Under the pieces are notes generated by a model, which saw nothing but the letters and a program-made list of their open reading frames with translations, ran no database searches and was not told the DNA's origin. Position numbers and translations under genes: made by a program. From Azolla caroliniana (taxonomy: Eukaryota > Plantae > Polypodiophyta), in NCBI GenBank assembly GCA_043228905.1, contig JBHGNT010000015.1, forward strand, positions 12,524,001 to 12,588,000: a stretch of 64,000 nt of DNA, written 5' to 3'. Below, piece by piece: positions 9,032 to 52,492 of this stretch (position 1 is the first letter of the stretch; every line of letters begins with the position of its first letter).

Positions 9032-9084
9032 TCCTCCGGTTACGGCCGTGTACGTAGACGCCCCATCCGGGCCGATTCGTACTT

Positions 9085-12052: not shown

Positions 12053-12139
12053 AAAATAAATGGAACATGCATAGGGCAAGATTCGAACCTTGCACCTCCA
12101 TGTTAATAATGTAATGTCTTACCATTACACTAGCATTTC
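12053..12139 (-). promoter_or_regulatory. tRNA-like Pol III cassette in D LTR, antisense to the element
   Basis: Minus strand A box TAGTGTAATGG (12132-12122); B box GGTTCGAATCT (12089-12079) inside a GCAAG/CTTGC hairpin; 32-nt spacing; TTTT shortly downstream. Second copy 14870-14923. Confidence 0.65.
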
Positions 12140-20700: not shown

Positions 20701-20923
20701 GTTCGGACCATATGTGGTGACAAGTGCCAACGACAATGCCACATACCACCTTGCGGAGCTAGACGGATCAAGGTTGGCCGTGCCGAATGCGGGAAAAAGA
20801 GTAAAGATTTTCAAGAAAAGACAAGACGACGATCCTAACCTCGACCACCTCGACGATGAAGATAGTAGGACTGAACCTATAGACTTGAGTTATGTGAACG
20901 AGGACATGGAGGAATCTGATTGA
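17725..20923 (+). pseudogene. Degenerate pol (RT, RNase H, integrase) of G
   Basis: ORF fragments up to 18281, 18312-18794, 18683-19270, 19271-19645, 19718-20323 and 20327-20923 are colinear with C pol, with stops and frameshifts. Confidence 0.92.
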
Positions 20924-23465: not shown

Positions 23466-26400
23466 CTACACTACGACACTCGCCCCCTCCAAACCCGCAC
23501 ATCCTCCGGTATGTGCCGAAGTTCTTGATTCTTCGTATCCGTCTTCATCCGAAGCTTCCTCCGATTCTCCCCTTATGTCGACTATGAGTTGTAATCCACT
23601 TTCTTCGCTTCCCGCATCATTGTGGTCTTCGTCCGATTGCTCCTCGTTGTCGGCCTCGACTTGGATCACATAAGGTTTGTCGTCGGTCCGCTTCTTGAAA
23701 ATCTTCACCCGCTTCCCGACTATAGGCACTCGTAGTATTGTTCCATCCAACTCGGACAGTCGGTACGTCCCGTTGTCGAAGACCTTCCGAACCTCGTACG
23801 GCCCGAACCACCTTTTCGCGAATTTCCGCATCGTTGTATGTTGATGGTCCAAGCTACTATCATACACGATCACCCAATCTCCTTCTTCAATCCTCCTCGG
23901 TCGTAGTCGGTGCTTTGTGTCGAACCGACTTTTGTTCCGGAACCGTGCTGCTTGTTGTCGGCGTGACGCTTCCGCTACATCTTTCGGTCTTCCCTCCAGT
24001 TGTCGTATCCGGACCGCTAGTAGTTCTTCCCGGCTCATCTCTTCCTTCCACGGTAGTATTGTCCATGTCGCGATTGCGGTTTCCGTTGGCATTACCGGTG
24101 CTTGTCCGGTCATGAGTTCTGCCGGCATGTAACCGGTCACGGAGCTATGCGTCGTCCGATCCGCCCATAGTGCATACGGAAGCATTTGTGGCCAATCCTT
24201 CACCCTTCCGTCGCATGCCTTCGCAAGTGCTTTCACGATCGGACTATGTCCTCGTTCGATCTTCCCGTTGGCCTCCGGATTGTAGGCCGTTGTCAACGTT
24301 AACCGAACTCCATGTTTGGCGAAGAATCCCCTAGCTTTGTCCGAGTCGAGTTCTCCCCGGTCCGCAATCACTTGTCCTACGCAGCCGTACCTACAAAACA
24401 CTTCTTCCAAAAGAAATTGGCACACCGCGGCACACGTTTTCCTCCGAAGCGCTCGACCTTCAACTTGGTTTGTGAGATCTTCTCGAGCTAACACCAAGTA
24501 TTTCTTTTGTCCAATCCCGGTCGGCATAGCTACAATGTCGACCATCCACTTGAAGTTGATTGTCGGTGAGAATGTCGGATGCAGCTCATCTCGGTGTCGG
24601 ACCCCGGAGTAGACTTGACATTTCTCGCAGCTTCCTGTGAACTCCGCGACATCTTTATACATGTTCTTCCACCAATATCTTTGCTTGATTTTCACAAAAG
24701 TTGCCCATGTTCCTCGATGTCCAGCCCAATCGGATTCGTGGAACTCGGACATTATCCGGTTTCGTTGCTCTTTCGTCCCGACTACTCGAAGTGGTATCCC
24801 ATCCGGTCTTTTCGGCGTCCTTCATATTAAACCGTTTTCCAAGAAGAACTTTTGGACTTGCCTCTTCTTCCTTCGGATCTCGGCTCTCCTTTCTTTATCA
24901 TTGGTTGAATCCTCGACCTCTTGTAGCATCTTCCCGATCATCAAGGTTTCCCCCTCGTATTCTTCTTCCCGGAATTCTCGGATCACGTTCACTCGGCATA
25001 TGTGTTCTGACGTGAAGTAGTCTTCGGAAACTTCTTCATTATCTGATTCGGTTATGTCGTCTTCAAACCGCGCCCTCGATAACATGTCCGCTCCCGCGTT
25101 GTCCTTCCCCGAGATGTGTCGAACCTCCAGATTAAGTGACTTGACATATGCAATCCACCTTAGCATAGCCACATCCGGTATCGTACAACACCGCATCATC
25201 CCGAGTATCGGAAGACAATCCGTCTCGATCACCACTTCAGCTCCGATCAAATAATCCCGATCCGATTTTATCGCCGACACGACTCCCCACAATTCTCTTT
25301 TGACTTGTGCATATCCGCGTTGCCTTTCGTTGAGGACCTTTGATCCAAATCGGATCGGATACCGCGAACCATCCGAGTCGGCTTGATTGATGACCCACCC
25401 GATACCGGTTGGACTTGTATCAACCGTTACTATGATTGGCCGCTCGTAGCTTGGCTTCTTAAGTGATTCCGCCCTCCATAGTGTCTTCTTGAGCTTCCTC
25501 ATGGCTTTAGTGTGTTCCGGTTTCCACTCGAATTTCTTACCTTTCCGCAACAAGTGATAGAGCGGGTCCGCTATATGTGCATAGTGCGGAATCCATATGT
25601 GATAGAATGCACACGCACCCAGAAACCTTCGGACTTCCGATGTTGACTCACATACTTCCTTCATAGCTTGAATCGCATCGATCTTTGTTGGTGACGGTCT
25701 TCGGCCGTAGGGTCCACATAGATGTCCGACCACCAATATTTCTTCTTGCCCGAATGCCGATTTCTCCCCGGAAAGTGTTAGGTGCACATCTTCTAGCTTT
25801 CGCAACACTTTCTCGCAATCATGAATATGGTCGACCACGAACTTTCGGCATCCCCGATCATCCATAGTCTCATCTTTTTCTTCCACCGCGCATCCTTTCA
25901 TCGGAATGTCATCTAAAAATGGCATCGTTATCTCCGGGATGCAATCTCGAAGCACCTTGTTCATCGCGTTCATCATATGTGCAACCGAGTTTGTCGCTCC
26001 TTGTGGTAGTGTGCACATTCGAACTAGTCCTATCGGTGTCCGCATGGTAGTGATGTCTCGGCTCTCCACGGCTAGTTGGAATTGGTCATACCCCGAGTAT
26101 AGGTCCCCGATGGAGTATATCGCACGTCCGGCAAAAGCTTCCGCGAATTCGTCCACTATCGGACCGACTCCCGAGTTCCGGATCATGACTTTGTTCACCG
26201 GTTGCAAGTCTTGGATGAATCGGAGTGACCCATTCTTCTTCGGAACCGTAAACCATCGATTTGAGTACGGAGCACTCGATGGCTCTAGAATCCCCATCGC
26301 CACCTTCTCCTTGAGCAAGTCGATGACTTTCGGAATATGCGCCCGTGGCACCGGAATCGGCTTCAGGTTCCACGGTACATGATCAATCGTGAAAATCACC

Positions 26401-26933
26401 ATCGGCTCCACTATCTTTGGATCAATGCATCCGATCTCCCTCGATGTGAACGCGAATGCTTTGCCATGTTGCTCCAACATCTCTCGAAACCGTTTTTCTT
26501 CTTCTTGTAAGAGGAACCCACCTCCACCGATCCGAAGTTTCTTCTGGGTCTCATCTGTGAAGGCATGTCCGATATCCACGGACTTCCGAAGTGTCGGATC
26601 TCCCGAGACTTCTTTCTTCTTTTGTTCGCTATCGGCGGGTAGTGGTCCCGCGGCCGGTTTCACCTTCTTCTCCACGGTCTTGTATTTCGTACTTACCATT
26701 GCTTCTTCTTTGCGGAGCGCATCCGGCCCCATTTTCGCAACGATCTCGTACATCTCGACCGATTCCACCGGGACTACCCGGTTCCCTTGGCTTTTATCTT
26801 CCGCAAGCTCTTCAAGCCGTTGTAGTGTATTCCCATAGAACACTTCCTCGATCACTCCCACGATTTCTTCGTCTTCTTTTATTATTGATGCCGACCGTAA
26901 CTTATCCTCCACTTGTCGGTATTGTTTCTTCAT
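23466..26933 (-). pseudogene. pol: C2 pol with one nonsense mutation (TGG>TGA at 24822-24824) upstream of integrase
   Basis: ORFs 24822-26933 and 23466-24752 are in the same frame and together match C1 Pol. Confidence 0.92.
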
Positions 26934-27067
26934 TCCTCCGGTTACGGCCGTGTACGTAGACGCCCCATCCGGGCTGATTCGTACTTGTTTTGCTCCGAGA
27001 GTTTTCTTCCTGTGTGGGGTATCAGGGCTTCTCGGACTATCACTTCCCCACTCCGCAACAGTCCGCT

Positions 27068-29194
27068 TTAAAAATCCATTCTCACTTGGGACAAGAGTTC
27101 CCTCTTGTTCCTTTCGTGATTTGCCGGCACCATTAGGAATTGGACGGATTTCCCTCCGTTTTGGCTCCGAATTCGCGCAAAAGCCGCACCACTATCGAGC
27201 ACCTTCGTCTCCATCCGTGAAGCCGTGATAAAGGGTTGGCCGAGGATGACAGAATGTGAAACCTCATCCTGCACAAAGAAATTTTGGTCAATTTCGACAT
27301 CCCCGATCTTTACCGTCACATCCGGACAAGCCGCAAATAGGTCTTCTGTCGTTTTCGTGGCTGCCCGAATCTTCCATCCATGGTTGGTGTTTATAGGCCA
27401 CTTCCCCTTTCGGTAGAACTCCTTGGACATCAAGTTGATCTCCGATCCGTGATCAATCAATGCTAGCACGGGTTCTTTGATGTTGCCGATTCGGACCGGA
27501 GTCTCCGTAGTCGCACGTGCCCAGTGTGGCCTTGTATAGTGGGAGTTCGGAATTTCGCCTTCCACTTCGGTGTCGTTCATTGAAACGGTATTTGCATTCA
27601 CCCTTGGAGCATTTTCCTCCGTACTTTGTCTCTTCCTTTTCACGAGATCCACGAGAAGATCGTGAAACTCCTTCTTCGCTATTCCGAGTAGTTCCCGCAG
27701 TGAAAAATCTACCCGGCTATCCAAGATTCTTTCCTCGAACACTCTTTTCAAGTCGGTTTGTTGTTCTATGTCCGAGGCGAGCTTGAATGCCGGAGTCGCC
27801 TTTTCTTTTCCCTTACCTCCGGAGTTCCAGCTTTCCGGTATCTTCGATGGTCCGGCCGCATCCTCCGTGCGCCGTCGTTTCTCGTCCACATACACCTCAT
27901 GTAATTGACACAGGGCGTATATGCTATTCTTGTCGACAGGGCACTCCCATCCCGTAGCTTCCCGGACGCCTTCCGCGGTGTTTCGGATATCGTTGGAGTC
28001 GGTTTTCTCGGTGTTTCCTAGCACCTCCGGCCAGAAAGACGCCTTCGCTCCCGATGACTCCCCGACACATATTCCTGCGGTTGTCGCATAGTTGCTTCTT
28101 GCCGCTAACTCCTCCTCGAGCACCTTCTTCATGCCGCCTTTCCGGAAGTTCGGTCGGAGTGGCTTCCGAGAGTCCATCGAATGAATCCGGTTTCCCTCGT
28201 AGTAGATGAGATCCCGTCGTAGCGCCTCCTTATGGTCGTCGCAATCCCTCCGATCGTGTTCGGCGCTATCGCACCATATGCACCGTCGATCCGTATATTT
28301 GGAGCTTGTGGGGCGGTCATCCGACTTCTTCACCATCGCGATCTTTAGATTCTCCATCTCCTTCAGCAGCTGCTCCACCGTAGACGCGTCGACTCCCTTC
28401 TCGGCCGTAATCTCCCGAGCCCTCGGTTGATGGTCTTCCAATCCCGTTCTCGGTTTCGGAATCGGTTCCGAAACCCTCTTTTCTTCGTTGGCAAGCCATT
28501 GCCCCCTCTTCGTGTACCGCGCGACGATATCCCGCACGCTTTCCCATGTTTCGGTGAGGCCGCTTTCGGTGGTCGTGTCCTCAAGAAGCACTCCGAGATC
28601 TTTCCGGTCCCGGACGTCCACAGCTCGCAAAAACATGATGACTTTGTCCGGTGCAAGAATAGTTTGATCTCTCGCGGACAACCTCCCGAACCGACTTTCG
28701 AATGTCGAAAACACTTCGAGGACCTTCAGCCCCTTACCTGACGTTTCCACCCAATCCTCGAATCCCCTCCGTGTTGCCTTGGAGGAGTCCTCGATGGCAA
28801 ACGTGGTCTTTAACGCCTCTTCGAATGCTTCCCACGTCGGATTTTGTTGTTGCAACCCGTGGATACTCCCTTCAAGCCCGTCGGTCGCCACCCGGTTAAA
28901 GGATGTCACTTGCAGTCCTTCCGAAGCCCGGCACCGGAGCATCTCCGCCTTGTAGTCCTGCAAATATCGCGACACATCCTTACCATTAAATTGCCCGTTG
29001 CGTTGCACGAGCCGCTCTACTGATGCCGAAATCTCCGACATCGTGCGTTGTTCTTGAAGCATCCGTTCAAACATCGCCATCATATTGTTAGCTTGTTGAG
29101 CCTCCATCTCCTTGCCACCCGTCTTCACGTCGGGTTCACCAACTGTGTCGTGCCTTTCGGCTCCGGATCGTTGCGTGAGTCGAGTGGGAACCAC
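27068..29194 (-). CDS. gag: C2 Gag-protease, intact ORF
   Basis: 708 aa, a few substitutions relative to the C1 ORF. Confidence 0.9.
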   Translation of the reverse strand: MVPTRLTQRSGAERHDTVGEPDVKTGGKEMEAQQANNMMAMFERMLQEQRTMSEISASVERLVQRNGQFNGKDVSRYLQDYKAEMLRCRASEGLQVTSFNRVATDGLEGSIHGLQQQNPTWEAFEEALKTTFAIEDSSKATRRGFEDWVETSGKGLKVLEVFSTFESRFGRLSARDQTILAPDKVIMFLRAVDVRDRKDLGVLLEDTTTESGLTETWESVRDIVARYTKRGQWLANEEKRVSEPIPKPRTGLEDHQPRAREITAEKGVDASTVEQLLKEMENLKIAMVKKSDDRPTSSKYTDRRCIWCDSAEHDRRDCDDHKEALRRDLIYYEGNRIHSMDSRKPLRPNFRKGGMKKVLEEELAARSNYATTAGICVGESSGAKASFWPEVLGNTEKTDSNDIRNTAEGVREATGWECPVDKNSIYALCQLHEVYVDEKRRRTEDAAGPSKIPESWNSGGKGKEKATPAFKLASDIEQQTDLKRVFEERILDSRVDFSLRELLGIAKKEFHDLLVDLVKRKRQSTEENAPRVNANTVSMNDTEVEGEIPNSHYTRPHWARATTETPVRIGNIKEPVLALIDHGSEINLMSKEFYRKGKWPINTNHGWKIRAATKTTEDLFAACPDVTVKIGDVEIDQNFFVQDEVSHSVILGQPFITASRMETKVLDSGAAFARIRSQNGGKSVQFLMVPANHERNKRELLSQVRMDF

Positions 29195-30580
29195 AGAGGT
29201 CTTGGACTAGGAGAAAGAAGTTCGTGAGATAGAGATTAATTATGAGTAAATAGCAAAGAGAAAGATAAGAAACTCGTGAATCACACGAGTATACTATATT
29301 AATTGGTACTTAGGGTGTTAAGAGAGAAGTAGATGTATAAATCGTGAATCCCACGAATAATTTTTGTATTGATTAATACTTAATCCAAATAATCAACAAC
29401 CCTTTATATATTTCTCTCCTCCTTATATAAGGAAGGAAGAGCTAAGCATGGCTTCATGCTTTTTTTTACAAAAAGTGTTCATGTCCACTAAATGTGCATG
29501 TGATGCTTTTTTATTTCCTAAGTATAGGGCTCATGCACGCTAGATGTGCATGAGTTATTTTTAGTGTCTGGTGTTTATTTTCTTTTTCTTTTTCTTTTTC
29601 ATATATTAAAAAAATACACGATTTACCTTTTAATAAAGGTATGCATAAATAAAGGTCTTATACGTATTAAATCTATATTTAAAACACTTAAGATAAGTTA
29701 ATGTAATGGTAAGGTTCGGGTTTGTCAACGTGGAGGTGCAGAGTTCCAATCACGCCCTGCGCAGTAGTGAGTATTTCCTTTTTTTTACATTTATGTCTCT
29801 TTATCCGGCTCTTCCTTGCCGGTATGCCGTTTTCTTCCTTGCCGGTATGCCGTTTTCTTCCTTGCCGGTATGCCGTTTTCTTCCGGTTCTCACCGAGCAC
29901 TCCATTCTCTATCCGGAGGGACAAAAATATAATTTCCACATAGTGTGCAACCTACACTACGACAGCGTGTCGAAAGTAGATTGGGCTGACGAGACATCCC
30001 ATGCCGGAGTGAAGGGGGAGATTGTTGGGAAATCGGTCCCTCCGAATGGGATCCGGTTATGAACGAAGAGGACCCGGTGAGAACCAGAAGAGATCCGGAA
30101 ACCGGATCGGATGGACCCAGTGAGAACCGGAAGAGAATACATATTTGTAAATATGTTTTGAGTAAGCCTATAGAGGCTATATTTGTAAATAGCCCTAAAT
30201 TCATATAAGTATAAATATGACTTAGGACAATCACTTTAGGGAGTTGTCATATTGTTGTTGAGATAACTGTTGTATAGAGAGAGAGAGAGAGACAGAGAGC
30301 GATACTTTGTTGTAACCCTTGGCTAGCAAAGATACAGAGCTTGAGGTCGTTGCCTCTGAGTCTCTGTTTGTACCTTTCCTACATAGTAATAGTTTGGAGT
30401 GTGTGGGCTCCCATAGTTTTTCCCTATTTGGGTTTTCCACGTAAACATCATGTGTATCCTCTATCGTTCTTTGTGTGTGTAAATGCGCTCACTCCCTACT
30501 TCCCATTTCTGTGTTTGATTTTCATCCAAGTGATTCAAGACTCGGTTGTGGCCGAGCAATATTCCGCATTATTCTTCTCA

Positions 30581-36820: not shown

Positions 36821-37574
36821 TGTAAAAATGAAGGTGAGGAAGCGTTGGACAACAAGCTTAGCCGGATAGCAACAGTGAAAGAGATAGATTAACACACAGA
36901 AGGTATGTAGGAGAGACAGAGAAAGAGCAGAACAACTTAAATCTATTATCAACAACTCTGTAAAATTCTCTATACCTACAACGTGCTCAACAACACTATT
37001 TATACCTAAGAGGACTGACATAAGTACGGTGTACTTCAATGCTCACACGAGCGTCTAACACTAATTACGAGACATTAACTACCTCGTAGTTTAGGCTGCT
37101 ACTAGGCTTCTAGTTACTACTTGATCCGGCTAACCAACTCCCCAGCTCACTTGCTCACTAGCTTACCGATCCGGATCCGGTTGAGCTTGCCGCTCAACAC
37201 TCCCCCTCAAAGCTCAACTTGAGGTCAGATCATAGTGTCAGTCTCCATGGCAGCCAGTCCTTCCACCCAGCTCCTTCTGGCGTCACTCCGCCTCGCTCGC
37301 GCTCCTCGTCTAGTCCGGTCCGGCCCCGTTTCCCGCGATCCTTCTGATTCTGCGCACCTCGACCTCCTCGGTCGGCTTGTCTTCTGAACATGCCCAATTC
37401 AGCTCCCTTGCTACTGTGACTTCAGCGCTTGCCGATTCGCCGATTCTCGTCGACTTTCGCTGCCCTCTCGTCCTCTTGGCCTTGAATTGATCCGGTTCTT
37501 CCGAATCCATCTGTTGAATCGAATCGGTTGTCTCCAATTCGTTCCAGCTCTTGTCTGAATCAGTCGCTGTCATG

Positions 37575-37644
37575 ATATGGCAAGACTCAAACCCATGACC
37601 TTATGTTAGATGGGTCGAGCTCTTGACCATTATACCATCTATTG
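37575..37644 (-). promoter_or_regulatory. tRNA-like A/B-box cassette at the start of the L LTR, antisense to the element
   Basis: Minus strand A box TGGTATAATGG (37637-37627); B box GGTTTGAGTCT (37593-37583); the other LTR has GGATCGAGTCT (52065-52055), so the pair is consistent with an ancestral GGTTCGAGTC; 33-nt spacing. Confidence 0.6.
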
Positions 37645-38020
37645 TAATACGTAGGATATTATTTTCATTTAAGTTTTATTATAGGAAATTAATGTATATT
37701 CCAAATTTCTCTGGAACATTCTAGAAGCTTCAAGATTTCTCCTGAGAACACTATAAAAGAAGCACTAGGCATTATTCTGAACCAAATTGGTTCAACGCCA
37801 GTCGTAAGCCTCATAGCCATCTTGTACTTACTCTTCCTATAATATATCATCAGTTATCATTATCTCTCTCTCTCTCGTCCTCACACTATCTCTCTCTCTC
37901 TCTCTTCTCTTCTCTTTCCTCTCTCTCAGGGGTCCTACGCAATACCGTCCTGTAAGTACTAATAGTACTTCCCTTCTCTAGTACTAATTCTCTCTCTGTT
38001 TTAGTACTATTCCTGATAGT

Positions 38021-38032
38021 TTGAACCAATTT
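38021..38032 (+). promoter_or_regulatory. Putative self-priming PBS of L
   Basis: TTGAACCAATTT, 2 nt after the 5' LTR, is the exact reverse complement of AAATTGGTTCAA (37784-37795), which starts 32 nt after the start of TATAAAA (37752). Confidence 0.75.
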
Positions 38033-38086
38033 TCCCTCTCTAGTCTTTCTTTTGTTTCCCTCATCCTCTTATCCTTTTTCTATACA

Positions 38087-41000
38087 ATGGCTTCTATTAG
38101 CGCCCAAGAATACCAATCCGTTTTCTTCGAGCTACAGTGTCTAAAAGAAAATTTTATTGCCTTGGAACAAGAAAACCAACGGTTGTTAGGGGATCTTCAA
38201 CAAATCGCCCTAGAAAAACAGCAAACGCAGCAACAACATGGGGAGTTAGCATTACATGTGCAACAACTCGAAGTAGCGTTGCAACAACAAGGATCAAGTC
38301 CCCAAGGATTTCATAAAGAGCCCAAGATTGGACTTCATGTGAAATTTGATGGAACGCGATCGCAATTTAGGGGATTCCTCAATCAGGTACGCTTAGTCAT
38401 TCAAATGCATCCTTCTCGATACCCCATTGATGCATCCCGAGTCGGCCTAATTGGCACGTTGCTTAGCGGCTCAGCTTTGGCATGGTTTGCTCCGTTTCTA
38501 GTAAAACAATCGCCCTTACTTAATAACTTTCAAGTCTTTATTAGTGAGTTTAAAGCTTGTTTTGGAGATACAGACAGCATCCAGACGGCGATCAACAAAA
38601 TTCGACGATTGTGTCAAAGCGATCGTCCAGCCTCTGCCTACGCGGCGGATTTCCGTCTCCTTGCTTCAGATATCCCCTAGGATGATCAGGCACTAAGGGA
38701 GCAGTTTCGCTACGGCCTGCGAAACGATGTCAAAGATCTACTTCTAACCTTCCCCAAAGAACCAAAGTCTCTTACGGAGGCAATCAGTCGAGCGGTCCGA
38801 TGTGACAACAGCCTTTTCGAACGGCGTTCAGAACGTCAATTAAAAATACCACGCTCTAGGCCGGAGCCCACTTATGCCTCAGTCGCGGCTAAACCGTTTG
38901 CACGAGAAATACCTCAAGCAAATACTCTGACACCAATGGATATCGACACCATGCGTCGACGTGGCCCGTTATCGGAAGAAGAAAAGCAACGATGACATGC
39001 AAATCGATTATGTCTTTATTGCAGTGAACCAGGGCATATCACAATCAATTGTCCCCATAGGCCAAGAAGACAAGTAAATCAAATCGTAGCCTATACTAAA
39101 CCTGAGTCAATTCATCCCTTAGGAGTGCCTGATAGTATTAATAGTACTAATAGCCCAAGTATCTCAAACAAATTTGAAATCCTTAGTCGATTAGATGAAG
39201 AGTTAAACGATTGAGTCTAGCCAAAATAGGAGTCGTTTGGTTGGACAACCCTAGATCTGTATAGCCCATTAGTGGTTCCATTCCCTCCAAGCAAGTTAGC
39301 AATGTGTTCCTAACCCAAGTCATGGTTAGTACTAAAAGTACTCCCTAGTACACGTCCTAGCACTTCTAGATTCCGAAGTTAATTCCTGTTTCATGGATCG
39401 AAATTTTGCCCAAGCTTCTCAAATATCCTTAAGAAAACTTCCTTGCCCCGCATCTGTAATGTTCATTGATGGTCATCCCATTGCTTCCGGGAATATTGTA
39501 GAAGAGTTAGAACCCATTCAAGTTGTCCTAGGTAGTTTTGTGTGTGTAGTTGCATTTAATATAATTAGTAGTCCAGAGCATCCCATTGTCCTGGGATTAC
39601 CTTGGTTTAAATTACATAATCCAGACATAGATTGGAGAACAAGAGAATTCTGACATCGACAACCCCAAGAATCTACTCATCGAGTTTCGACCATTTCACT
39701 ACATCAATTACGTGAAGAAGGACACAAGGAGGCAATGTTCCTATTTGCAATATTAGTACATCCTTCCAACACTATTAAGGAGGAATCCTTAGTGCAACTT
39801 CCGGCAAAATATCATCCTTATACCGATGTATTTGACAAGGTAAAAGCTGGTACTCTTCCTCATCATCGTCCCTATGATTGTCCAATCGATTTACAACCAG
39901 GAGCAGTGCCACCATGGGGACCAATTTACAACTTTTCACCCACCGAGTTAGAAGTCCTTCGAGCCTACATAGAGGAGAACTTGGCAAACGGGTTTATTCG
40001 TCATTCGAAATCTCTAGCCGGTGCACCCATCTTCTTTGTCAAGAAGAAAGGTGGCTCACTTCGTCTCGTCGTTGATTACTGCGGCTTGAATAAAGTCACC
40101 ATCCGGAATAGGTATGCACTTCCTCTTATATCAAGTCTTTTAGAGCGAGTTAATGGTGTCAAGTTTTTTACAAAAATCGATCTACAAGGAGCGTATAACC
40201 TCATGCGGATCCGACCGGGAGATGAATGGAAGCCCGCCTTTCGCACGCGGTATGGGCATTTCGAATATATTGTTATGTCGTTCGGTCTAACCAATGCACC
40301 CGCAGTCTTCCAACACATGGCAAATGATATATTCAGAGACCTCTTGGATATCTATTTGATCATCTATCTGGATTATCTATTTGAAGACCTAGGAAGAGCA
40401 CAATTCTCATGTACTATTAGTACTAAAACGACTCCGCGAGAATGGTCTTTGTGCCAAGCTAGAAAAATGTAGCTTTGACTGCAAGCAAGTGGAATTTCTA
40501 GGCTACATCATCTCCTCAAAGGGCATCTCCATGGATCCAGCTAAAGTCCAAACTGTGCTAGAGTGGCAAATTCCACGGTTGGTACGAGATGTACAATGTT
40601 TTCTAGGTTTTGCTAACTTCTACCGTAAGTTTATAAAGGATTACTCGAAGATTATTTTACCTCTCACACAACTTACAAAGAAGGGACAAGCATTTCTTTG
40701 GTTCAATGAAGCGGACATGGCTTTTCGGCATCTTAAGGAAGCCTTTACATCAGCTCCTATTCTAGCTCATGTGGATACAAACAAACCATTCATCATGGAG
40801 GCCAACGCATCGGATTTCGCCCTCGGTAGCATCCTTTCTCAACAAGGAGATAAAGAAGAGTTACATCCTGTGGCTTTCCATTCGCGCAAACTCGATGCCG
40901 CGGAAATCAACTACAAAATACATGACAAGGAGTTATTAGCCATCGTGGATTCCTTTGTGAAATGGCAACATTTCTTAGAGGGCTCTCCACATCAGGTCAT

Positions 41001-42360
41001 TGTCTTTAGTGATCACAAGAATCTTGCTTCTTTCCAGAACGCTCGGGTGCTAAATCGACAGCAGGCTCGGTGGGCTCAATTCCTCACGCGTTTTGACTTC
41101 AAAATCACATATCGACCGGGGAAGCAACAAGGAAAAGCAGATGCGCTATCACAGCGTTCATATCTTGCACCTCGTCCTGGTGATTCAGTGTTTGATAATC
41201 AAAAGCAAGTAATCTTGGGACCAACACGATTGCACACAACGCGGATTTTTCACACCCCAATGGATTCCCAAATTATCGATGCCATACGTGAGAACTTGAA
41301 GACAGATAATTTTGCTCAAGACATTCTGGCGCACATTGATACCTCTTGGGCATCCTGTTCCCAATCTCAACAACCAGGTATGGACTACCGATAATTCGAA
41401 AATCATGATGGTTTGTTATTCTTTAAAAAGCTTGTATATTTCCCCGATTGCTCCTCTCGCCTTCAAATCGTCCAAAATTGTCACGACACCCATACAGCGG
41501 GACATTTCAGTGGCTCTAAGTCGTTGGATCTTGTTCAACGATCTTTTTGGTGGCCCCATATGCGACATTTTGTCGACGACTACATTCGGACTTGTGATGC
41601 TTGCTGCCGAGCAAAGATGCCCCAACACCATCCATATGGCTTGTTGGAACCCTTACCGATTCCAAGTAAGCCGTGGCAGTCTATTTGTCTTGATTTTATC
41701 ACAAATCTGCCGGTCTCGAAGGGGTTCGATGCTATCTTAACTGTCATCGATCGATATACTAAGATGGCACATTTTGTGCCATGTACTAAGGCCATCACTA
41801 GCGAGGAAACCGCCGCCCTTGTCATGCGTGAGGTATTTCGGCATCATGGCCTCCTAGATAGTATCATCAGTGACCGAGGACCTCAATTCGTCTCCAAATT
41901 TTGGCAACATCTTTTCAAGATGCTCAAGGTCTCTTGCAACCTCTCCTCCGGCTACCATCCCCAAATTGATAGGCAGGCAGAATGAACAAACCAAACATTG
42001 GAACAATATCTCCGGTGTTTCCTGAGTTATCAACATGACGATTGGGCTGAGATTCTCCACTTTGCGGAGTTTGCATATAATAATGTTGTTCAGTCCTCGA
42101 CTCGGGTCTCCCCATTTTACGCTTATACCAGTTCTCATCCTCATTGGTCGGTGATCGACACCCTGGAGCTACCTACCAATCCTCATGTCGAGGATCATTT
42201 GTAGAGGCTACGCAAGATCCAGATGGATCTCTCTACTCATTTTCGTCATGCTCAACACACACAGAAGACTTATGTGGATCATCATCGTCTTCCCTCCTCT
42301 TTTGCCATCGGAGATCGAGTATGGCTCTTACGTCGTCACATCAAGACTACTCGACCGTGC
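38087..42360 (+). pseudogene. Degenerate gag-pol of chromovirus L
   Basis: Gag KFDGTRSQFRGFLNQ; protease IVLGLPW; [26 protein letters not shown]; RNase H ASDFALG, HDKELLAI; integrase HHCC, SDRGPQF; several stops. Confidence 0.92.
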
Positions 42361-42806
42361 GACAATGTTGCCTCTTAGGAACACGGTCCGTGGTCAGTCC
42401 TTCGACCTAGACCCCAAGGTGGGTGTGGAACAACGAACAGAGCTTAAGTGTACTGCGTAGGGAGAGAACCTCTGTGATTCCTCTGTGCGTACGGGGAGAC
42501 GGCTACAACCGACTCCTTATCACAGGTTGCACTTACGTACTACTACGCTTACGTATCCAAGACACAAACAGTGAATTAGTCGCAGCTACACACAGAAACT
42601 CAGAGAAGATAGTATTTTATTATCAAACGTTCTTTTACATTTCCCAAAAATTACACGCACCTCCTTAAGAGGTTTTCTGCCCTTTATATATGCAGGGTCT
42701 AATTAGCCGTTCACGCTTCCCGCGTGAACCGTTACATACGTTACGCTTATATAGTTTCTTATTCCTACGCTTTTGGCCGTCGGTTACTATTCCAACGGAC
42801 AACACC

Positions 42807-42823
42807 TGGCACGCCTGTGGGAC
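42807..42823 (+). promoter_or_regulatory. Inverted PBS-like site at the expected PPT position of A2
   Basis: TGGCACGCCTGTGGGAC 2 nt inside the 3' LTR boundary; the element strand reads GTCCCACAGGCGTGCCA-GG-TGTT and is not purine-rich. Confidence 0.7.
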
Positions 42824-42886
42824 AGTGCCTTTGCACGTCGAACCCATCCCGTTAATCTTCTTCCAAAATGGCCCGGATGTTCGGCT

Positions 42887-45763
42887 CTATTGTGGTGTCC
42901 TCGTCCGGAGTTGATGTAGGTCCTGTAGGTGCATCGTGGTGCGGCTCCTTTGCTTCGTCGGCCTGGTTTTTCCCGGAGTCGCCTTCGTCGTGTGCGTGTG
43001 GTCGGTGGGCTCTTCTTGAGTTAGTGGGCTGGGCTCCGCCGGTAGCGTGCTTGCCATCGGCTGCAGCTCAGCTTCTATTGTTACGTCCTCCGCGGTGTTG
43101 GTCGTTTTTGTGTGTCCCTGGGCGTGGGGCGAGGATTCCGCCTGGTCCGCACTATTTTCCGCGTTTTCTGAAGATGGTGTGGGTTGGACCTCTTGTTGGT
43201 TAATGTTTTCGCTGTCTGGTCCTATGGGGAACTCTGCTCGTTCGTCCCCGCTATTCTCCCCCGTTGTCCTCCCTGGTGATCGGGCCTGAGGTTCCTCTTC
43301 TTCGGTTGTGACCGGAATTGGTGTCCCGCTGGGTTCCTCGTTCGTGTGCGTGTTGCCGGTTTGTGTGATCTGGTGAAATAGCTCCTCCTGACTTTCACCA
43401 AAATCATCAAGGAGTTGTGCGAGTTCTTCGGAGTGTTGATCTGCTAACGTGCGATAGTCTTGCACTAGGTCCTCCCGTACGGTCGCAATGCTCTCCTCGT
43501 TTAGCTTATAAAACCCTCAACCATCTTTCCGCCGGTTCTCCCAGTCCGCACGATACGAGTGCAATTCCGCTGCTTGGGTTGCCCATGCCATCCATCCTTT
43601 GTCCAGCACCGTTTCCAATTGCGCTGTGAACCTTTCCCGGTTGGTCTGGAGAAGGTCGCGCACGTTATCCGTGATAGCCTGACAGCGGTTGCGTGCGTCT
43701 TCCATTGACTTCTGGAGATTCACGATTTCCTGTTGTTTAACTGTTGCCACTTCCTCGTACGTGGCCTTTAGGCCCGCCTACAGCTCGGATTCCTTTTCAT
43801 GTTGTTCTTCTAATTTTCCCATTTCATTGTTTAGGCAGACTTCGAGTTGATGCCTTCTGTCTTGTTCGACTACCAACTGCTCATCGAACCATACCTTCTT
43901 TTTTTCTAATAAGGCCCGAAGTCCCGCTATTGCCGCCCTTGATTTCTTCGCGTCCTCTCGTAATTGGGCGTTGTCCTTTTGTGTCTGGATGTGTTGGGCT
44001 ACCTCCGTAGCTAGTTTCTCTTCAAGCGTTTTTACGACCTTTCGTCCGTTAGCCCGTATCTCCTTTTCTCTGTCGGAGGATTGGTGTAGTTCTGCTCGAA
44101 GACGGTCAATTTCGGATTCCGCTAGCTGCACGGCCCATTTTTCTTTTGAGGCGATGGCGATCTAAGCCTCGATTTCTTCTTTGCGAGCGTTGATAACGTG
44201 GTTCGGTGGCGGGGTTTCGTGTTGCACAGTAGTCGTGTGAGCTTCCAACTCCGCGATGTGTGCGTTGGCCTTTTGTAGTTCGGCTTCCGTCAGTTTCACC
44301 TTCTTCCAGACATTCTTATTTTTTATGGCCATCTCCTTGGCGCCCGTGCTGACCTTTGCCAGTTCCCGATGGACTTCGACTAGGGCCGTGTTTAAGGGTG
44401 GTATCTCCATCCCTACTCGTCGTACCCCGGCGTTCCTCTGTCTGTCGACCCTAGCTAGCCGGTCCTCATCGTCGCTCTCCGTTGTTTGCGTTAGGGCACG
44501 CTCTATCATCTGACGTTCCGCATGCTCCTGTTGTGTTGTCAGGAACTCCATGAGCTCGAAAGAGGTACCGAATTGCAAGAGGGCGCTGAATTCGTGGGCC
44601 GTATCCAGAATATCCGGATATGCCAAAACCTCGTTTTCCGGCGTCAATACGGCTTTCCCTTGTTGGGACTGAGTCGTAATAATCGGTCGCGGCTCCCGGA
44701 TGATTTCGAAGGTGGTATTCGGCTCTGCTGTTGCGGGGCCTTCGCCTGCGGTCGGTGCCTCCGGATCCGTGGGGGCGTTTTTTACCAACCCCCGCCCATC
44801 TTTTCTGTCCAATCTGCGCCGTTTTGGTCTAGGGATTTCCCGTCGTGTTTCGGTGTCTAGTTCTGGGGCTGCTTCCATGGGGTGTCTCGGTTGTTCCTCC
44901 TGCGTCGCCCGTGTGTCCGGTTGGTCGGTAGGAGGTGTTGTCCTTGGGCCTAGTTGGGCCGGTTGGGGTTCCTCATCCCACTCTAGGGCCGCTAACTCCG
45001 CTAACCTGCGTTTCGCGGAGCGGGGCGGGGCCGTGGGTTCGCTGGGTTGTGGTGTTGGCAAGCCTCGGGGTGGAAACAGTACCGTAAGGTATTGTTGGAT
45101 GATTGGCCTGAGCTTTTTGCCTTCTTGGTATGCATGCAAGCCTTCCCTTAATGTCGGCCCTATGATGACCCCCCAGTCGACTGTACGCCCTTCAAAGCTG
45201 TCGATAATGATGCCCGCCTTCTGTTTAGGCATCCCGTAAGCGTTGACATGGACGCAGCCGACTTCCAGTAGGAACTTGGCAACTTCACGGAGGAAGGGAT
45301 CCGGAATCTGTTTTGTTCTATAGGCCTTGGCGGAGGATGAATATGGGCCAAAATACCGTTGCAGCGCCTCTGTAGGAGGTATTTCGAAATTTGTTTTGCC
45401 TAGTGAGGATAGGTCTACCTTCTTCCGAATGTAAGAGTTAGTGACCGTGTCGATGTTAAGCCGCCTAGCGATGTCCATGGCGTCCGGGTGCAGAGGTGCT
45501 TCTGCGACCCGAATATAACCATCCAGGCGCTTCTCCACGAGCCATCGGCGTAGGGCAGTAGAGATGAAGATCGGCATCGCTAGAGTAGGTTCGTGGAGAG
45601 GAGACGTGTAGCAGTGATGAGTTGGAGCTCTGAGATATGATGGGGAAGAAGGTGAGGAGGAGCGATGGGAGCGCTGATAGCTAGACGATGTGTTTCTGCT
45701 TTGTGCAGAAAATCTTCTGTTTCCTTCTTTTTGTAGCTTAGGGTTCATTGGGCGGTGAGCCAT
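42887..45763 (-). pseudogene. Extra sense ORF of A2 (env-position), broken by stops and frameshifts; coiled-coil-rich
   Basis: ORFs 44162-45763, 43778-44131, 43517-43750 and 42887-43465 lie between integrase and the 3' LTR. Confidence 0.75.
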
Positions 45764-45922
45764 CGTGGTGCCGCGTGTTCTTGAACTCAGAGTTTGTGCA
45801 TGCCTTTAGTCGTTTTAATAGTCGCTATCTTCTCTCTCTTTTTTCTTTTTTCTTTTTCTTTTTTTTCGTAACGGTTAGTTACACCCTACTTTTACAATAT
45901 AGTACAAATGGGACTGTCCCTT

Positions 45923-48900
45923 TTACGCTGCTGGTTCTCTAGCTTCGTCCCGTTCGGCGGTGAAAGGGTTAGGTGGCGTAGGGCCCAGGTAAGGTTTCAG
46001 CCGAAACCCATTCACTTTTTGCCGTACTATTTCTCCAGCCAGCGTTCCTAGTTGGAACATGCCCTGTTCCGCTCCAATTATCCAGTATGGGCCGGTCCAG
46101 CGGAAATGTAACTTCCTTGGCATATGGCCCATGTGCATTTGAAACACTAGCACCGCTCGGCCCACGGCGAACTCCTTTTCCCTTGCGCTCCGATGTCGAT
46201 CGACAAACGCTTTACGCCGTCACTGTTCCTCTTCCAACACAGCCATGTTGTGGACGTGTTTTTCCCCTAGTTTGAGGAGTTGGTAGAGCCGTTCCTCCTC
46301 TGACTTGGCTTCTGATAATCGGTTCTGTACCTGAATGCGCAAACTAGATACCCGAAATTCGACCGGCATCACAGCTTCTAGTCCAAACGCTAGCCGGAAC
46401 GGTGTTGACTGTATGCTTGTTTTGTAACTAGTTTTATATGCCCATAACACACCCTGGAGTTTGGTATCCCAGTCCGTTCTATTTTCATTGACAGTTTTCT
46501 TCAAAATGGTCTGTAAAGTTTTGTTCGTGGATTCCGCTAATCCATTCGCCTGTGGGTAGTATTGCGTGCTCTTCTTGTGGTCTACTGCGTAATGTTGTGT
46601 TAGTTCCCGAACCACCGTATTGAGAAAGTGGCTCCCCTGGTCACTGATGAGCTCAATCAGGCTGCTGTTGGTGTGAAGGGCCCCACAAAATCCAATCCCC
46701 ACTTTTGGAAGGGGTCCAGTGGTAATACGGGCTGGTGTGGCATCCTTGCGTCCTCCGCGGGCTGACCCATCCGCTGGCACAAATCACACTTTCTACAATA
46801 CTCGGATGCGTCCTTCTGCGTTGTTGGCCACCATAAGCCCTCCTGCCATACTTTGCGGGTTGTCACGTTGCCCGCGTAATGGCCGTCGGCCGTGCCGTAG
46901 TGTGCCTCCCGTAAAACTGCTTCTTTTTCATCCTGACGGACTCCACGTCGCCAAATGTCGTCACTCCCTTTGTGATATAAATTCCCTTCGACCAGGCAGA
47001 AGTGACGGCTTCGGACGGCTAGTCGTTTCTTCTCGTATGTGTGTAATTGTGGTGGTGGTAGTCCTGTAGTTAAAAAGTACGTCATTTCCATAAGCCATCG
47101 ATCCGGAAAGGTGGATTCCGTTTTTTCTACAAATGTCGCTACTTGCTAGATGTTGGCGTCCGGAAAATCGTTGTCGTCTTTCTGTACTGTTTCTCCATTC
47201 TCAAGTCTGCTCAAAAAATCTGCCACTGCGTGTTGCGTCCTTGGCCGGTGTTGAAGTATGAACTCGAATTCCTGGAGCAGCAGCATCCACCGCGCCAATT
47301 TCCCTGTCAGGGCTTGTTTCTCCACCAAATACAATAATGCCGAATGATCCACGTGGAACGAGAATTTCCATCCTAGTAAATAATGTCGGAATTTATTGAT
47401 GTTATAGATCATCCCTAGCGCCTCCCGCTCTGTTGTGGAATAGTTACGCTCTTCTGCTGTCAATTTACGACTTGCGTAGTATACTGGCCTGTACCAGTTT
47501 GGTTCGGTGAGTTGCATTAGCGTGCTTCCTATTGCTATGTCTGAGGCGTCGACGAACACGTGGAATGGCTTCGCCCAAACTGGAGGTTGTACGACGGGGG
47601 CCTGTGTCAGCATTATCTTAAGTGCCTCATAGGCCTTATCCTCTATTGCAGTCCATTGGAAAGGAGTCCGATGTACGGCAACGTGTAGTGGCGTGGCGAA
47701 GTCCGCCTTATACCGTATCATCCGACTATGCCACCGTATTTGGCCCAGAAACCGGCTAAGTGATTTGGCATTTGTCGGAGTTTTAGCTTGCGTAATAGCG
47801 GAGATCTTGTTTGGGTCGACCGCTATTCCTTCCTTGCTTACGATGTGGCCTAGGAGAGTCCCGTTGGTCATGCCGAAGGCACATTTCGCGGGATTCAAGC
47901 TTAAGTGTGTGGTGCAGCAACGTTCCAGGCAGAGACGTAAGTGCGAGAAATGGTCTTTTGTTCGCCCATATACCGCAAAATCGTCTAAAAAGACTTGCAT
48001 GAACGCCGGAATGTATTCCCCAACGATCTCCGTAATCGTTCGTTGGAATGTTGCCGGCGCTGTCTTTAGCCCGAACATCATGACGACCGCCACATATACT
48101 CCCCAGTCCATGACAAATGTCGTCTTCTCCTGGTCCTCGGGGTGCATGCGTACTTGGTTATAACCACTGACGCCATCTAAGAAATTGTACATCTCATGGC
48201 CTGCGACGGCGTCCAGCACGCTATCGGTGAAGGGTAAGGGAAATGCGTCTGTAATGGTTACAGCGTTTAATTTCCGGTAATCCACGCATACCCGTATTTT
48301 GTTGTTTTTCTTTGGGACAACCACTATCGGGCTAAGCCATGTCGCTTGTTTCACTGGTCATATGAACCCCGCCCTCAGCAGCTTGTCAATTTCTTCTTTC
48401 ACGTGGGTCGCGTAATTGGGGTTCATGCGGTAGCGACGCTGCTGGACAGGTTTCACGTCCGTTACTAAATTGATCTTATGTTGATAGAACATGGGATCTA
48501 ACCCCTTCATGTCCTCGTGAGCCCACGCGAACACATCTTTATATTCCGTGAGTAGTGCGATCATTGTGGTTCTCTGGTCCGGCCTCAATTCCTTTGCTAT
48601 GGAGAGGAACCGGGGTTCCGATCCCGTACCCACATTCACTTCGTCGAGAGCGGAAGCGGTGACTCATCGTGAAATCTCCATTTCCCTTTCGAAGGCCGCT
48701 TGTGCTCTGCTGAGTTCCAATATGGACTCTAGGTTTGGTTCGTACGGCTCTTCGCTCGGAACAATGGTCGTAGTATATTATGCCGCTGTTGCGATGACAT
48801 CTATCTCAAACAACGAAATAATCCGAGGATGTTCGTCCAGGTACGCTTCCAATTCGGCATCCTCCACCCCAGCCAGCATATTGATGTCTTCGCATACAAC

Positions 48901-50901
48901 GGTGTTATCCCCTTAGGTTGTGGCGTGTTGCCTTCCGTCGATACACGAACCTTGATGCGTCCATGCTGGAAACTGATACACTCGTGTTGCCAGCTCTGCT
49001 TGATATTTGTTGTCCGAAGCCATGGTCTGCCTAGAAGCATTGGGTACGCTCCTGGGGCGTCCAAAGCGAGGACGACCACCGATATGCCGAAGCGGTGTCC
49101 GCCCACGATGATGCCTATTTTGTGAATTAGCTCCAACGGTCGCACTGATCGGGTATTTGCCATGCGAAGCCAGAATGGACACGCCTCCCATTCGGAAATG
49201 CCCAACTATTCGCAAGTTTTCGCGCTAATCACATTGACGCCTGAGCCGCCGTCAATTACACATCCAGGAACTTCCTGTCCGTGCAATATTACTGTAATGG
49301 CCGGGTTGTGCTGCTCCACCACTGGTGGTCCCTCGCTGACATCAGTTAGGTTTGTGGCAACGCTGGCCCCGGTCATGCCCGCCACCTGTGCTTCCATGGT
49401 CTGGCGAAAACGTGGAACTAGCTGTAGCAGTTTTTCCATAGTTAACGTGATTTCACAACCCGCTAACACCTGCCAAATGGGGTCTGGCCCCGGTTTTTCG
49501 TTCTCTGTTCGCTTCATTGCGTTCGCGGACTCCTGCCTCATACGTTCCGTATTGGTCGCGTTTGCTTTTTCCACCTAGGCTTGGGCTTGTCGTTGTACCT
49601 CGTCCTGCGCAGCCCAATCCGTCGTTTTTGTTTGCTGGCGTGTTGACTTGTTGCACCTCCGTCGTAATCGTGTTGACGGCGGGCCCCTTTCCCTTGCATG
49701 TTGGGCATTGTGTGGCATAATGTCCAAGTTGCTGACAAATAAAATAATGGATGCTTGATTCTCCCTTCTCAGCCCCAGGTGGAGTGTGCTGTTCTCCGGG
49801 CGCTACTTGCTCTTCGCGGTCCGGCCTCTTTTGTCAAGACGTACGCGGTGGCTGCTGTTGGTCCCGTCGTTGTTCCTGGTCCCGCTCATCCCCCGAGCTT
49901 TCTTTCGTCGTAATGCCGGTGATCCCTATATTGTCGAGGCTTACCCCAATAGCCATTGAAGCCGCCCCGTTTGTTTGTCGAGCGTTGATGTTCGTATCGC
50001 CGACCCCCTTTGGCGTAACTTGGATGTCCACGATAATCCTTGTCCTCCGGGTCGTCCTCCTCGGACTCTTTGTGATTTCGGCGATTCCGGTTGTACCTGT
50101 CCTCCCGCAAGTTGCGATCCTTATACCAGGGTTGGTCCTCTTGCCTCCTTTGTTCCGCCCGGTGCGGTTGCCACTGTGTGTCCATGCCGCTGTGTGTCTG
50201 TTTAACATATTGTACTCGCATTGGTCGATTGTGTGAACCTTCGAGTGGCAGATTGGGCAGTGGATTCGCATATTGCACTCCACTGCGGAATGCCCTGAGT
50301 TCAAGCAAATCGTGCACTGGATTGCCTGACGAAATTGGCGTTCCTCATCCTAAGGTAACGCTTGTCGTAAGGATGACATCGAAAACCTCTCCTCCTCATC
50401 ATCCAACTCGAGTTGTAACGCTCATTCAATCACCATATCCTTCGTTTCCCCTTTCATGCTATTGTTGTTGAGCGTTGCCCGGATGGGCCGGCGTAACGCT
50501 GCCAGAAATGTCTCCCGAGCCTCCTCCTCCGCGGGGCTTCGATCCAGTTTCGGTCGTAAATTTTGGAACCGTAAGCTGAAGTCTGCTATCGTCTCAGTCG
50601 GTAGTTGCTTAATTGTATAAAACTGCCCGAGAATCTCGCGTTGTGGAACCCTCCGGTGGAAGAAACGCAAGAAGGCGGACTGCAGCTGATTGAAGGTTGT
50701 TATGGCTAGTAAATCCATCTGTGAATGTCAGAACGCCGCACGCCCATCTAATGTTAATCTGAACTCCGTCATTTTCGACTGGTGTGCCACCGTCTCGGAA
50801 AGGTTCTGCGCCATGTGGTTCGCATTCCAAACGTTCAAGAACATGTGAATATGAGTTGCGGCGTCGGTTTCGCCGTTAAAGCGAGGGTAGGCAAAGGCCA
50901 T
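45923..50901 (-). pseudogene. Degenerate gag-pol of A2
   Basis: RT WLSPIVVVPKK, CVDYRKLN, VFLDD; RNase H VFVDAS, NYSTTERE; integrase ISDQGSHF, YYPQANGLAE, WTGPY; many frameshifts and a deletion in integrase. Confidence 0.92.
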
Positions 50902-51635
50902 CGTGGGAGCTACGGCGGATCGGAAAAGGTCACCGGGTGGCTGCGGTAAGCATGGTCCCCTCGCCTCGTCGAGGTATTTGGGGAGCAAGGAATCCCCTTT
51001 GCACTCCTGGCAGGTATTACTGAGGTCGCCGTTGCGCGGCTTTTGCCGGGCGCGTTCTTCTGCCTGGCGTGTGACGGACCTTGTTATTGGCCGGTCTTGT
51101 CTTGTTGGTTCTCTGGGTCGTCTGCGGCTAAACATCCATTCGTTGTTGCTCGTCTGTGAGGAAACACAGATCACCAAGCATGCCAAAAGTGTTGCCTCTT
51201 AGGAACACGGTCCGTGGTCAGTCCTTCGACCTAGACCCCAATGTGGGTGTGGAACAACGAACAGAGCTTAAGCGTACTGCGTAAGGAGAGAACCTCTGTG
51301 ATTCCTCCATGTGTACGGGGAGATGGCTACAACCGACTCCTTATCACAGGTTGCACTTACGTACTACTACGCTTACATATCCAAGAAACAGACACTGAAT
51401 TAGTCGCAGCTACACACAGAAACTCAAAGAAGATAGTATTTTATTATCAAGCGTTCTTTTACATTTCCCAAAAATTACACACACATCCTTAAGAGGTTTT
51501 CTGCCCTTTATATATGCAGGTTCTAATTAGCCGTTCACGCTTCCCGCGTGAACCATTACATACGTTACGCTTACATAGTTTCTTATTCCTACATGCTTTT
51601 GGCCGTCGGTTACTATTCCGGCGGACAACAGACAA

Positions 51636-52039
51636 GTTGGATTATCGACGACTCGGTCCTTTCCGTATTACTAGTAAGGTTAATGATGTCACGTTCTGCC
51701 TTGATCTTCCTCCGCATCTTCAGATACATCCGGTTTTCCATAGCTCTCTTCTTGAACCTTATAAAGCAAACACTATTCCCAATCGTGTTACACCACCACC
51801 GCCCCCGCTTGAGTTGGAAGTCGGCCCGGAGTATGAAGTTGTTGCTGTCCTCGATTCCAAACTTGTTCGCAACAAACTTTATTATTTGGTCGATTGGCTC
51901 GTTGAACGTACTTGGGAACCCATTGAGCATGTCGCCAATGCTCAAGATCTTCTTGCTAAGTTCCAGCGAAAGTATCCGAACAAACCCGGTCCGCAATCAA
52001 CGCCGACTCGTTCAACTCGTCGTCTTAAGGGGGAGATAG
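51636..52039 (+). pseudogene. Integrase C-terminus and chromodomain of L
   Basis: LGPFRI, IHPVFHSSLLEP, EYEVVAVLDSK...YYLVDW...TWEP. Confidence 0.9.
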
Positions 52040-52331
52040 TGTCATGATATGGCAAGACTCGATCCCAGGACCTTATGTTATATGGGTCGAGCTCTTGACC
52101 ATTATACCATCTATTGTAATACGTAGGATATTATTTTCATTTAAGTTTTATTATAGGAAATTAATGTATATTCCAGATTTCTCTAGAACATTCTAGAAGC
52201 TTCAGGATTTCTCCTGAGAACACTATAAAAGAAGGCACTAGGCATTATTCTGAACCAAATTGGTTCAACGCCAGTCTTAAGCCTCTTAGCCATCTTGTAC
52301 TTACTCTTCCTATAATATATCATCAGTTATC

Positions 52332-52379
<48 letters not shown>

Positions 52380-52492
52380 TCTCTTTCCTCTCTCTCGGCG
52401 GTCTTACGCAATCCCGTCCTCATAGTACTAATAGTACTTCCCTTCTCTAGTACTAATTCTCTCTCTGTTTTAGTATTATTCCTGATAGTCGC

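Follow-up and report, generated by a model that had tools for sequence, protein, structure and literature searches.

A conserved tRNA-like site in place of the polypurine tract in a Ty3/gypsy retrotransposon lineage of Azolla, with a possible role in plus-strand priming

Results and Discussion

A 64,000-nucleotide (nt) stretch of Azolla caroliniana DNA (contig JBHGNT010000015.1 of assembly GCA_043228905.1, positions 12,524,001 to 12,588,000; hereafter the window, with positions counted from its first letter) holds a long terminal repeat (LTR) retrotransposon, element A2. A2 belongs to a lineage without the polypurine tract (PPT) that normally primes the plus strand, with a conserved tRNA-like site at that place, an arrangement that standard replication does not explain. 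The explanation to which we incline is that the plus strand is primed there by a second host tRNA-Arg, or by a 3' fragment of it, annealed to the minus-strand DNA. On balance, it also seems probable that a clade from non-seed plants employs two host tRNA primers, one on the RNA and one on the minus-strand DNA, and has dropped the PPT, with different tRNAs possible for the two strands.

The 3' junction of A2

A2 is a whole Ty3/gypsy element of 9265 nt on the minus strand (42366-51630). Its 3' LTR (42366-42804, minus strand; 439 nt) and 5' LTR (51190-51630, minus strand; 441 nt) are 95.0% identical and have TG...CA ends, and GACAA flanks the element on both sides as a perfect target-site duplication of 5 base pairs (bp) (42361-42365 and 51631-51635, plus strand). 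Read on the minus strand, the LTR carries a TATA-like box (TATATAAA) at its positions 117-124 and then AATAAA at 186-191, about 70 nt apart (51514-51507 and 51445-51440 in the 5' LTR; AATAAA at 42621-42616 in the 3' LTR); the RNA of A2 therefore corresponds to the minus strand. The pieces of gag, reverse transcriptase (RT), RNase H and integrase and an extra 3' open reading frame (ORF) all lie on that strand as well, in agreement with the minus orientation that an earlier, sequence-only reading of the window had drawn from the LTR signals and all ORFs. The same reading had placed the primer-binding site (PBS) correctly: it is a 14-nt tRNA-Arg-type site, TGGCATGCTTGGTG (51172-51185, minus strand), separated from the 5' LTR by the 4-nt spacer CTTT (51186-51189, minus strand), for which no variant is listed family-wide. 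A1, the second copy, has TGGCACACTTGGTG at 2756-2769 (minus strand), and its 3' end lies beyond the window. The reversed polarity, with a plus-strand RNA and the site at 42807 as an ordinary PBS, was set aside because of the order of TATA-like box and AATAAA and because all coding parts are on the minus strand; it is also disfavoured by the other end of A2, which has no purine tract on the plus strand.

Before its 3' LTR, the A2 RNA reads GTCCCACAGGCGTGCCA, then GG, then the TG of the LTR. The inverted primer-binding-like site, box 1 (TGGCACGCCTGTGGGAC; 17 nt, 42807-42823, plus strand), appears on the RNA as the CCA-ended 3' end of a tRNA-Arg-type molecule, one base under 18, and the CCA stops 2 nt before the 3' LTR (spacer GG, 42805-42806, minus strand). 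Box 2 (TCGAACCCA; 42838-42846, plus strand) is the complement of the T-loop and the 5' T-stem strand of the tRNA, and between the boxes lies a hairpin (42825-42836, plus strand) with a 4-bp stem and a 4-nt loop in the A2 copy. Box 2 and the hairpin, like a purine run at 42856-42864 (see below), are additional to what the sequence-only reading had described. At up to three mismatches, TGGCACGCCTGTGGGAC has its sole match in the window here (0.13 expected). At least one match arises in 12 of 100 shuffles, and the weight of the site therefore lies in its position and not in its mere presence. An Rfam scan of 42700-43000 returned nothing near threshold. The sequence-only reading had called the site one base short, which is borne out by comparison with the 18-nt PBSs of two Tat loci (L053 and L082) and with two tRNA-Arg(TCT) genes called by ARAGORN.

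Its claim that the purine tract is missing stands too. A PPT directly before the 3' LTR is the usual Ty3/gypsy trait, and 'most' such elements are described with one (PMC6317226), but A2 lacks it. Within the 20 nt that lead up to the 3' LTR, purine runs reach 3 nt at most in A2 and in its relative L086 (see below), whereas all nine control elements have a run of 5-11 nt with a G tract. These controls comprise five Athila-type loci, two Tat/Ogre loci, the distant relative L036 (its junction inferred from a collapsed circular contig) and the chromovirus-type element of the window; L026 and L045 were excluded from the count because their LTR start is cut off.

Conservation among family copies

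Contigs of four public runs (three samples from three studies, under two species labels; 943-1653 contigs per run) were placed on 42690-42990. The richest of these runs may be the window's own source, and the read depth of family contigs is not taken as copy number. Parts of A2 occur in 12 public runs, none of which is recorded as RNA. Of the variants listed (40 of 69), just two fall within 42807-42823, namely 42815 C>T (5-9% of depth) and 42817 G>A (4-10%); both are of the methylation-decay type, and no indel is among them. The missing base is therefore a family trait and not an error of the A2 copy. In the spacer, a variant at 42806 turns GG into AG in 11-14% of the family depth, and the common family variants 42830 and 42832 sit in the hairpin loop. 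In box 2, A>G at 42841 is the family majority (72-88%); the changed base would wobble-pair with a tRNA U. Some subfamilies have a longer box 2 match, with the loose-end consensus TCGAACCCACAA...; these loose-end subfamilies have the LTR start and the site in common and diverge thereafter, yet still carry TCGAACCCACAA. Across the contigs of the four runs, the site is thus near-invariant and no purine tract is present, which is the outcome that the sequence-only reading had anticipated for other copies. At the other end of the element, the family-majority PBS is TGGCACGCTTGGTG; the A2 copy differs from it at 51180 (A>G in 87-97% of depth), and A>G at 51177 accounts for 1-6%. One subfamily shows another LTR inner end at 51199 (TGTTACCGA, plus strand) on the same LTR body.

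Conservation in a distant relative

Alignment scans with 29 proteins yielded 122 loci (1 viral, 80 metagenomic and 41 genomic), the metagenome part covering 6 of 64 parts. Only L086 is in the A2 clade with both ends present; L007 has the 5' end only, and the other in-clade loci are short or decayed. L086 lies on a 79-kb contig filed under a Chloroflexia bin, and this contig is almost surely plant DNA that contaminates the bin. Plant retrotransposon DNA occurs in many GTDB genomes and bins (L086 on G001:C10, L087-L089 and L091-L126). The RT of L086 is 62% identical to that of A2 and groups in the same clade (support 100/99); its 1.6-kb LTRs and 3' region give no blastn match to A2 at E<2. Its 3' LTR is nonetheless preceded by a 7-bp hairpin, of a sequence unlike that of A2, and then by CTCCACCAGGTGTGCCA, AG and TG. 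Of the 13 bases abutting the LTR, 11 agree in register between the two elements; over the 580 nt upstream, 5 of 322,624 position pairs reach such identity. The motif is thus kept in a distant relative, as the sequence-only reading had asked of family members, and the AG spacer is the one found as a minority variant in the A2 family. Both strands would start in the same way, with CCA, a short purine spacer and TGTT; in L086, CCA-AG-TGTT stands at the starts of both strands.

The 5' PBS behaves differently. It begins with TGGCGACTCC in L086 and with TGGCGACCAC in L007 (RT 77% identical), which would be other Arg isoacceptor types. Three PBS types are thus found among A2, L007 and L086, but a single 3' site in A2 and L086, the two elements where that end is visible. 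L086 keeps the 3' site although its PBS type differs, and so, as judged from this one relative, conservation of the 3' site does not depend on the PBS. The sequence-only reading had looked for covariation with the PBS; L086 shows none, which we read as a sign of a pairing partner outside the element rather than as a refutation. Farther away, L036 (6560-7595; RT 48% identical) groups with a Riccia protein and has an Athila-type PBS and a normal PPT, and it therefore brackets where the PPT was lost. The junction pattern was also matched by 90 viral stretches, none with an RT relative, and these were rejected as chance. In L086, the pol frame is open for 2444 codons (9323-16654), of which about 1200 follow the integrase core without a Pfam match.

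Candidate tRNA

A two-box pattern built from A2 matched four viral stretches, two of which ARAGORN calls as tRNA-Arg(TCT), but not the other two. Used as stand-ins (with RNA-RNA energies), the phage tRNAs pair in two blocks; the loop between them measures 14 nt on A2 and 16 nt on L086. In both elements, the pairing breaks after the 18th base from the tRNA end, i.e., at the 58/59 step, where eukaryotic tRNAs carry m1A58. For L086 with the two phage tRNA-Arg(TCT), 20 and 15 of 500 shuffles are as good, compared to 110-400 of 500 for three other tRNAs. The 18-nt PBS of the Tat loci L053 and L082 shares its nine first and seven last bases with the A2 site, and a tRNA-Arg PBS is described for Ogre, TatIII and part of Retand (PMC6317226 supplementary file 3). 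Attempts to find the plant tRNA itself gave negative results: 19 tRNA genes were called on 18 tRNA-bearing stretches of a Stigonema bin, none of them Arg(TCT); pattern searches of 5 + 5 contaminated genomes and of viral contigs returned no plant tRNA-Arg; and the portions of published supplementary files that were searched contain no host tRNA-Arg sequence.

Priming of the plus strand

The A2 family integrates with exact ends, and something therefore primes precisely at the LTR edge, where the conserved feature is the CCA-ended tRNA-like stretch. If a second tRNA is the primer, replication would run as follows. A first tRNA would prime the minus strand at the 5' PBS as usual, and RNase H would clear the genomic RNA, leaving the site single-stranded on the minus DNA. 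A tRNA-Arg(UCU) or its 3' fragment could then pair with it, its 3' 17-18 nt with box 1 and its T-loop side with box 2, the hairpin being looped out at the 58/59 step. RT would extend the CCA end through the 2-nt spacer into U3; finally, RNase H would remove the tRNA and integrase would trim the 2 nt, giving the exact TG end. More speculatively, protection of the primer from RNase H may come from the bulge of one base that lies 12-15 nt from its end. Precedents exist for single elements of this scheme, as HIV-1 integrase removes a 2-nt overhang, the same distance as that from the CCA to the LTR in A2 (PMC13332604), and Ty1 has two-segment PBSs with a small loop between them (PMC5371799).

Several observations weigh against priming by a second tRNA. 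Only a single relative, L086, has both ends; its target duplication is imperfect (CAATA/ATATA), its site has one mismatch and its box 2 is weak. Box 1 misses one base throughout the family, and the purine share of the last 15 nt separates A2 (60%) poorly from the controls (67-80%). RNase H could degrade an RNA primer annealed to DNA, and its motifs look ordinary. Moreover, at the site the genomic RNA is identical in sequence to the tRNA end, is already in place and could itself prime. As to the identity of the tRNA, the phage tRNAs came from a search with the A2-derived pattern, which makes their agreement with A2 circular; Arg(UCU) is a label taken from these phage tRNAs and from the Tat PBSs, and neither the window nor the other sequences searched yielded a host tRNA gene.

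The strongest competitor builds on the genomic RNA. Possibly, though with clearly lower probability, the element's own RNA is the primer: its tRNA-like stretch and hairpin would resist RNase H and be cut after the CCA, as at a tRNA-DNA junction, making the site a non-purine PPT derived from a captured tRNA end. Position and spacer would be the same, no second tRNA would be needed and the missing base would be tolerated. In addition, Ty3 RNase H reads the shape of the hybrid, and the junction at which it cuts does not differ between all-RNA and RNA-DNA PPT substrates (PMC5371799). Yet this leaves unexplained why a box complementary to the tRNA T-loop is retained, why two elements whose hairpins differ share a pairing break at the 58/59 step, and why the majority change at 42841 is one that a tRNA U tolerates on the minus DNA. 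We favour a tRNA because of this second box, the shared 58/59 break, the wobble-compatible majority change at 42841, and a site that has lasted through the turnover of the LTRs and the PBS.

It is doubtful that the site has another job, such as tRNA capture on the complementary DNA (cDNA) or a packaging or dimer signal, with the plus strand starting at a cryptic purine run or an internal site. The candidate displaced PPT is a run of nine purines (42856-42864, minus strand) that lies 52-60 nt upstream of the 3' LTR, follows a T-run and remains purine in its one common variant. Ty1 and retroviruses are known to have a T-rich stretch ahead of the PPT (bioRxiv 2022.12.06.519325), and the family-majority hairpin is a 12-nt palindrome. 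However, the run has no counterpart in L086 and some subfamilies diverge directly after 42846. Priming there would give long ends, and ends primed at a distance from the LTR edge do not integrate: in HIV-1, 3'-PPT mutants form 1-LTR circles with no detectable integration in the account of PMC13332604. The ends of A2, in contrast, are exactly TG...CA, and its target duplication is perfect.

The sequence-only reading had raised a further alternative, namely that the 3' site pairs with the 5' PBS within the RNA for circularisation or self-priming, the latter taken here as that of the minus strand. The two sites of A2 pair well (-27.5 kcal/mol, reached by 2 of 1000 shuffles). In L086, the PBS is of another type with the 3' site unchanged, the pairing is weak (-19.9 kcal/mol, reached by 75 of 1000 shuffles) and only six pairs are contiguous. 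Plus-strand priming would also still be unexplained, and we regard this alternative as very improbable. Least credible is a neutral relic, either an inverted LTR end and PBS from an old rearrangement (a plausible origin, as LTR ends are short inverted repeats) or an assembly quirk; it is largely refuted by the family-wide presence of the site in independent runs and by its register in L086, where the adjoining non-coding DNA has lost all similarity.

Classification and comparison with known systems

By its sequence features, A2 is a non-chromovirus Ty3/gypsy element from a lineage of non-seed plants close to Athila. Pfam scans of P0001, P0004 and L086 revealed no chromodomain family, and in the trees the RT groups on the Athila/Tat side. 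There, A2 falls in a separate clade of 12 rows (100/99), while eight Athila-type rows form their own, the labels being taken from PBS type and host names rather than from REXdb references. The proteins closest to those of A2 are 74-79% identical, and the nearest ones of named plants, from Riccia, Marchantia and Adiantum, 45-53%, which points to a non-seed-plant host. The same Pfam scans, run without a positive control, gave no extra archaeal-type RNase H; the gap between RNase H and integrase is about 100-115 amino acids (P0001, P0004 and L086).

In canonical priming, as in Ty3 and HIV-1, a host tRNA binds the PBS and an RNase H-resistant PPT lies before the 3' LTR (PMC5371799, PMC13332604). 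A2 resembles these elements in its TG...CA LTRs, 5' tRNA PBS, RT-RNase H-integrase set and short primer-to-LTR spacer, but has a CCA-ended tRNA-like stretch where the purine tract belongs. The bipartite or second PBSs of Ty1, Ty3 and Drosophila Gypsy likewise involve two-segment pairing that includes the T arm, and a tRNA-related site near the 3' end (PMC5371799, PMC1635307). As described there, however, those sites lie on the genomic RNA as complements of the tRNA, act in minus-strand priming and occur alongside a PPT, whereas in A2 the complement is on the minus-strand DNA, covers the CCA end of the tRNA and replaces the PPT. Self-priming of Tf1/Tcn1 and the Helenus terminal-repeat retrotransposons in miniature (TRIMs) share with A2 a non-standard priming or a tRNA-like sequence inside an LTR element (PMC6317226, PMC10886601), but the former concerns the minus strand (PMC6317226), and in Helenus the tRNA-like part lies within the LTR as a promoter, with PBS and PPT kept (PMC10886601).

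Among plant lineages, Athila (non-chromovirus, OTA) shares with A2 a neighbouring RT clade, a 5-bp duplication, a T-rich spacer before the PBS, an extra 3' ORF and the lack of an extra RNase H (PMC6317226). A2 nevertheless lies outside the Athila rows of the tree, its PBS is of the Arg type while that of Athila is mainly Asp/Asn/Ala (PMC6317226 supplementary file 3), and the Athila loci examined have G-rich PPTs. Like Phygy and Selgy, A2 is a non-seed-plant non-chromovirus without an extra RNase H, and its length is near the 7.7-10.0 kb of Phygy (PMC6317226). The same paper describes for them 4-bp duplications (NCGN in Phygy), a Trp PBS in Phygy and Trp/Thr or Ala overall, and no extra ORF, whereas A2 has a 5-bp duplication, an Arg-type PBS and a 2.9-kb 3' ORF region, and is set apart from both by these traits. 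Tat elements (TatIII, Ogre, Retand) also use tRNA-Arg PBSs (PMC6317226 supplementary file 3), and the 18-nt PBS of L053 and L082 resembles the inverted site, but they have an extra RNase H and a PPT, and their RT identity to A2 is only 35-38%.

Significance

Full-text literature searches, judged by titles and abstract starts and with subscription papers mostly outside, returned no description of an inverted PBS that replaces the PPT, and the phrase 'inverted primer binding site' is absent from the papers listed by one of these searches. To our knowledge, plus-strand priming from a PPT is regarded as close to universal among integrating LTR elements and retroviruses, and the known variation concerns the minus-strand primer. 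A tRNA-primed plus strand would be a new route for LTR elements, and would place both strands under the control of host tRNA or tRNA-fragment pools. If the element's own tRNA-mimicking RNA is the primer instead, this would also be a kind of plus-strand primer unreported in the literature searched. A successful, high-copy lineage without a PPT shows that the plus-strand priming step can be rewired, and with it one can study in nature how a plus-strand primer is selected and spared by RT and RNase H. In addition, annotation tools that score the PPT may miss or mis-orient elements of the A2 type.

Anatomy of A2 and other elements of the window

The coding part of A2 (45926-51000, minus strand; 5' bound approximate) comprises gag with CCHC knuckles, protease, RT, RNase H and integrase, and is interrupted by stops and frameshifts. 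The domain order gag-PR-RT-RH-INT fits a Ty3/gypsy LTR retrotransposon, the integrase is recognised by a zinc-binding domain, and the four catalytic acidic motifs of the RNase H are present. The 3' extra ORF (42890-45805, minus strand, sense) forms one frame of about 970 codons with three internal stops and has a coiled-coil-like middle; two pieces scanned gave no Pfam match, and similarity to the same region of L086 is weak (23-29%, tblastx).

A2 is nested in a chromovirus-type element of the plus strand, within its integrase region, and the frame of that element resumes across the target duplication. This host element (37568-52489) has LTRs at 37568-38020 and 52040-52489 that are 94% alike, and an ordinary G-rich PPT, which makes it a same-genome control. 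In A1, the inner end of the 5' LTR (2774-2775) reads GG where A2 has TG, so that the CA terminus is lost. Another minus-strand Ty3/gypsy family is present in two 98.5% identical copies (4741-11970 and 22703-29869), with a gag ORF that gives a weak DUF4100 match and an RT only 27% identical to that of A2; inverted pieces at 12542-20817 are related to this family. Finally, 54-nt units form a tandem array within open frames on the plus strand at 15890-16318.

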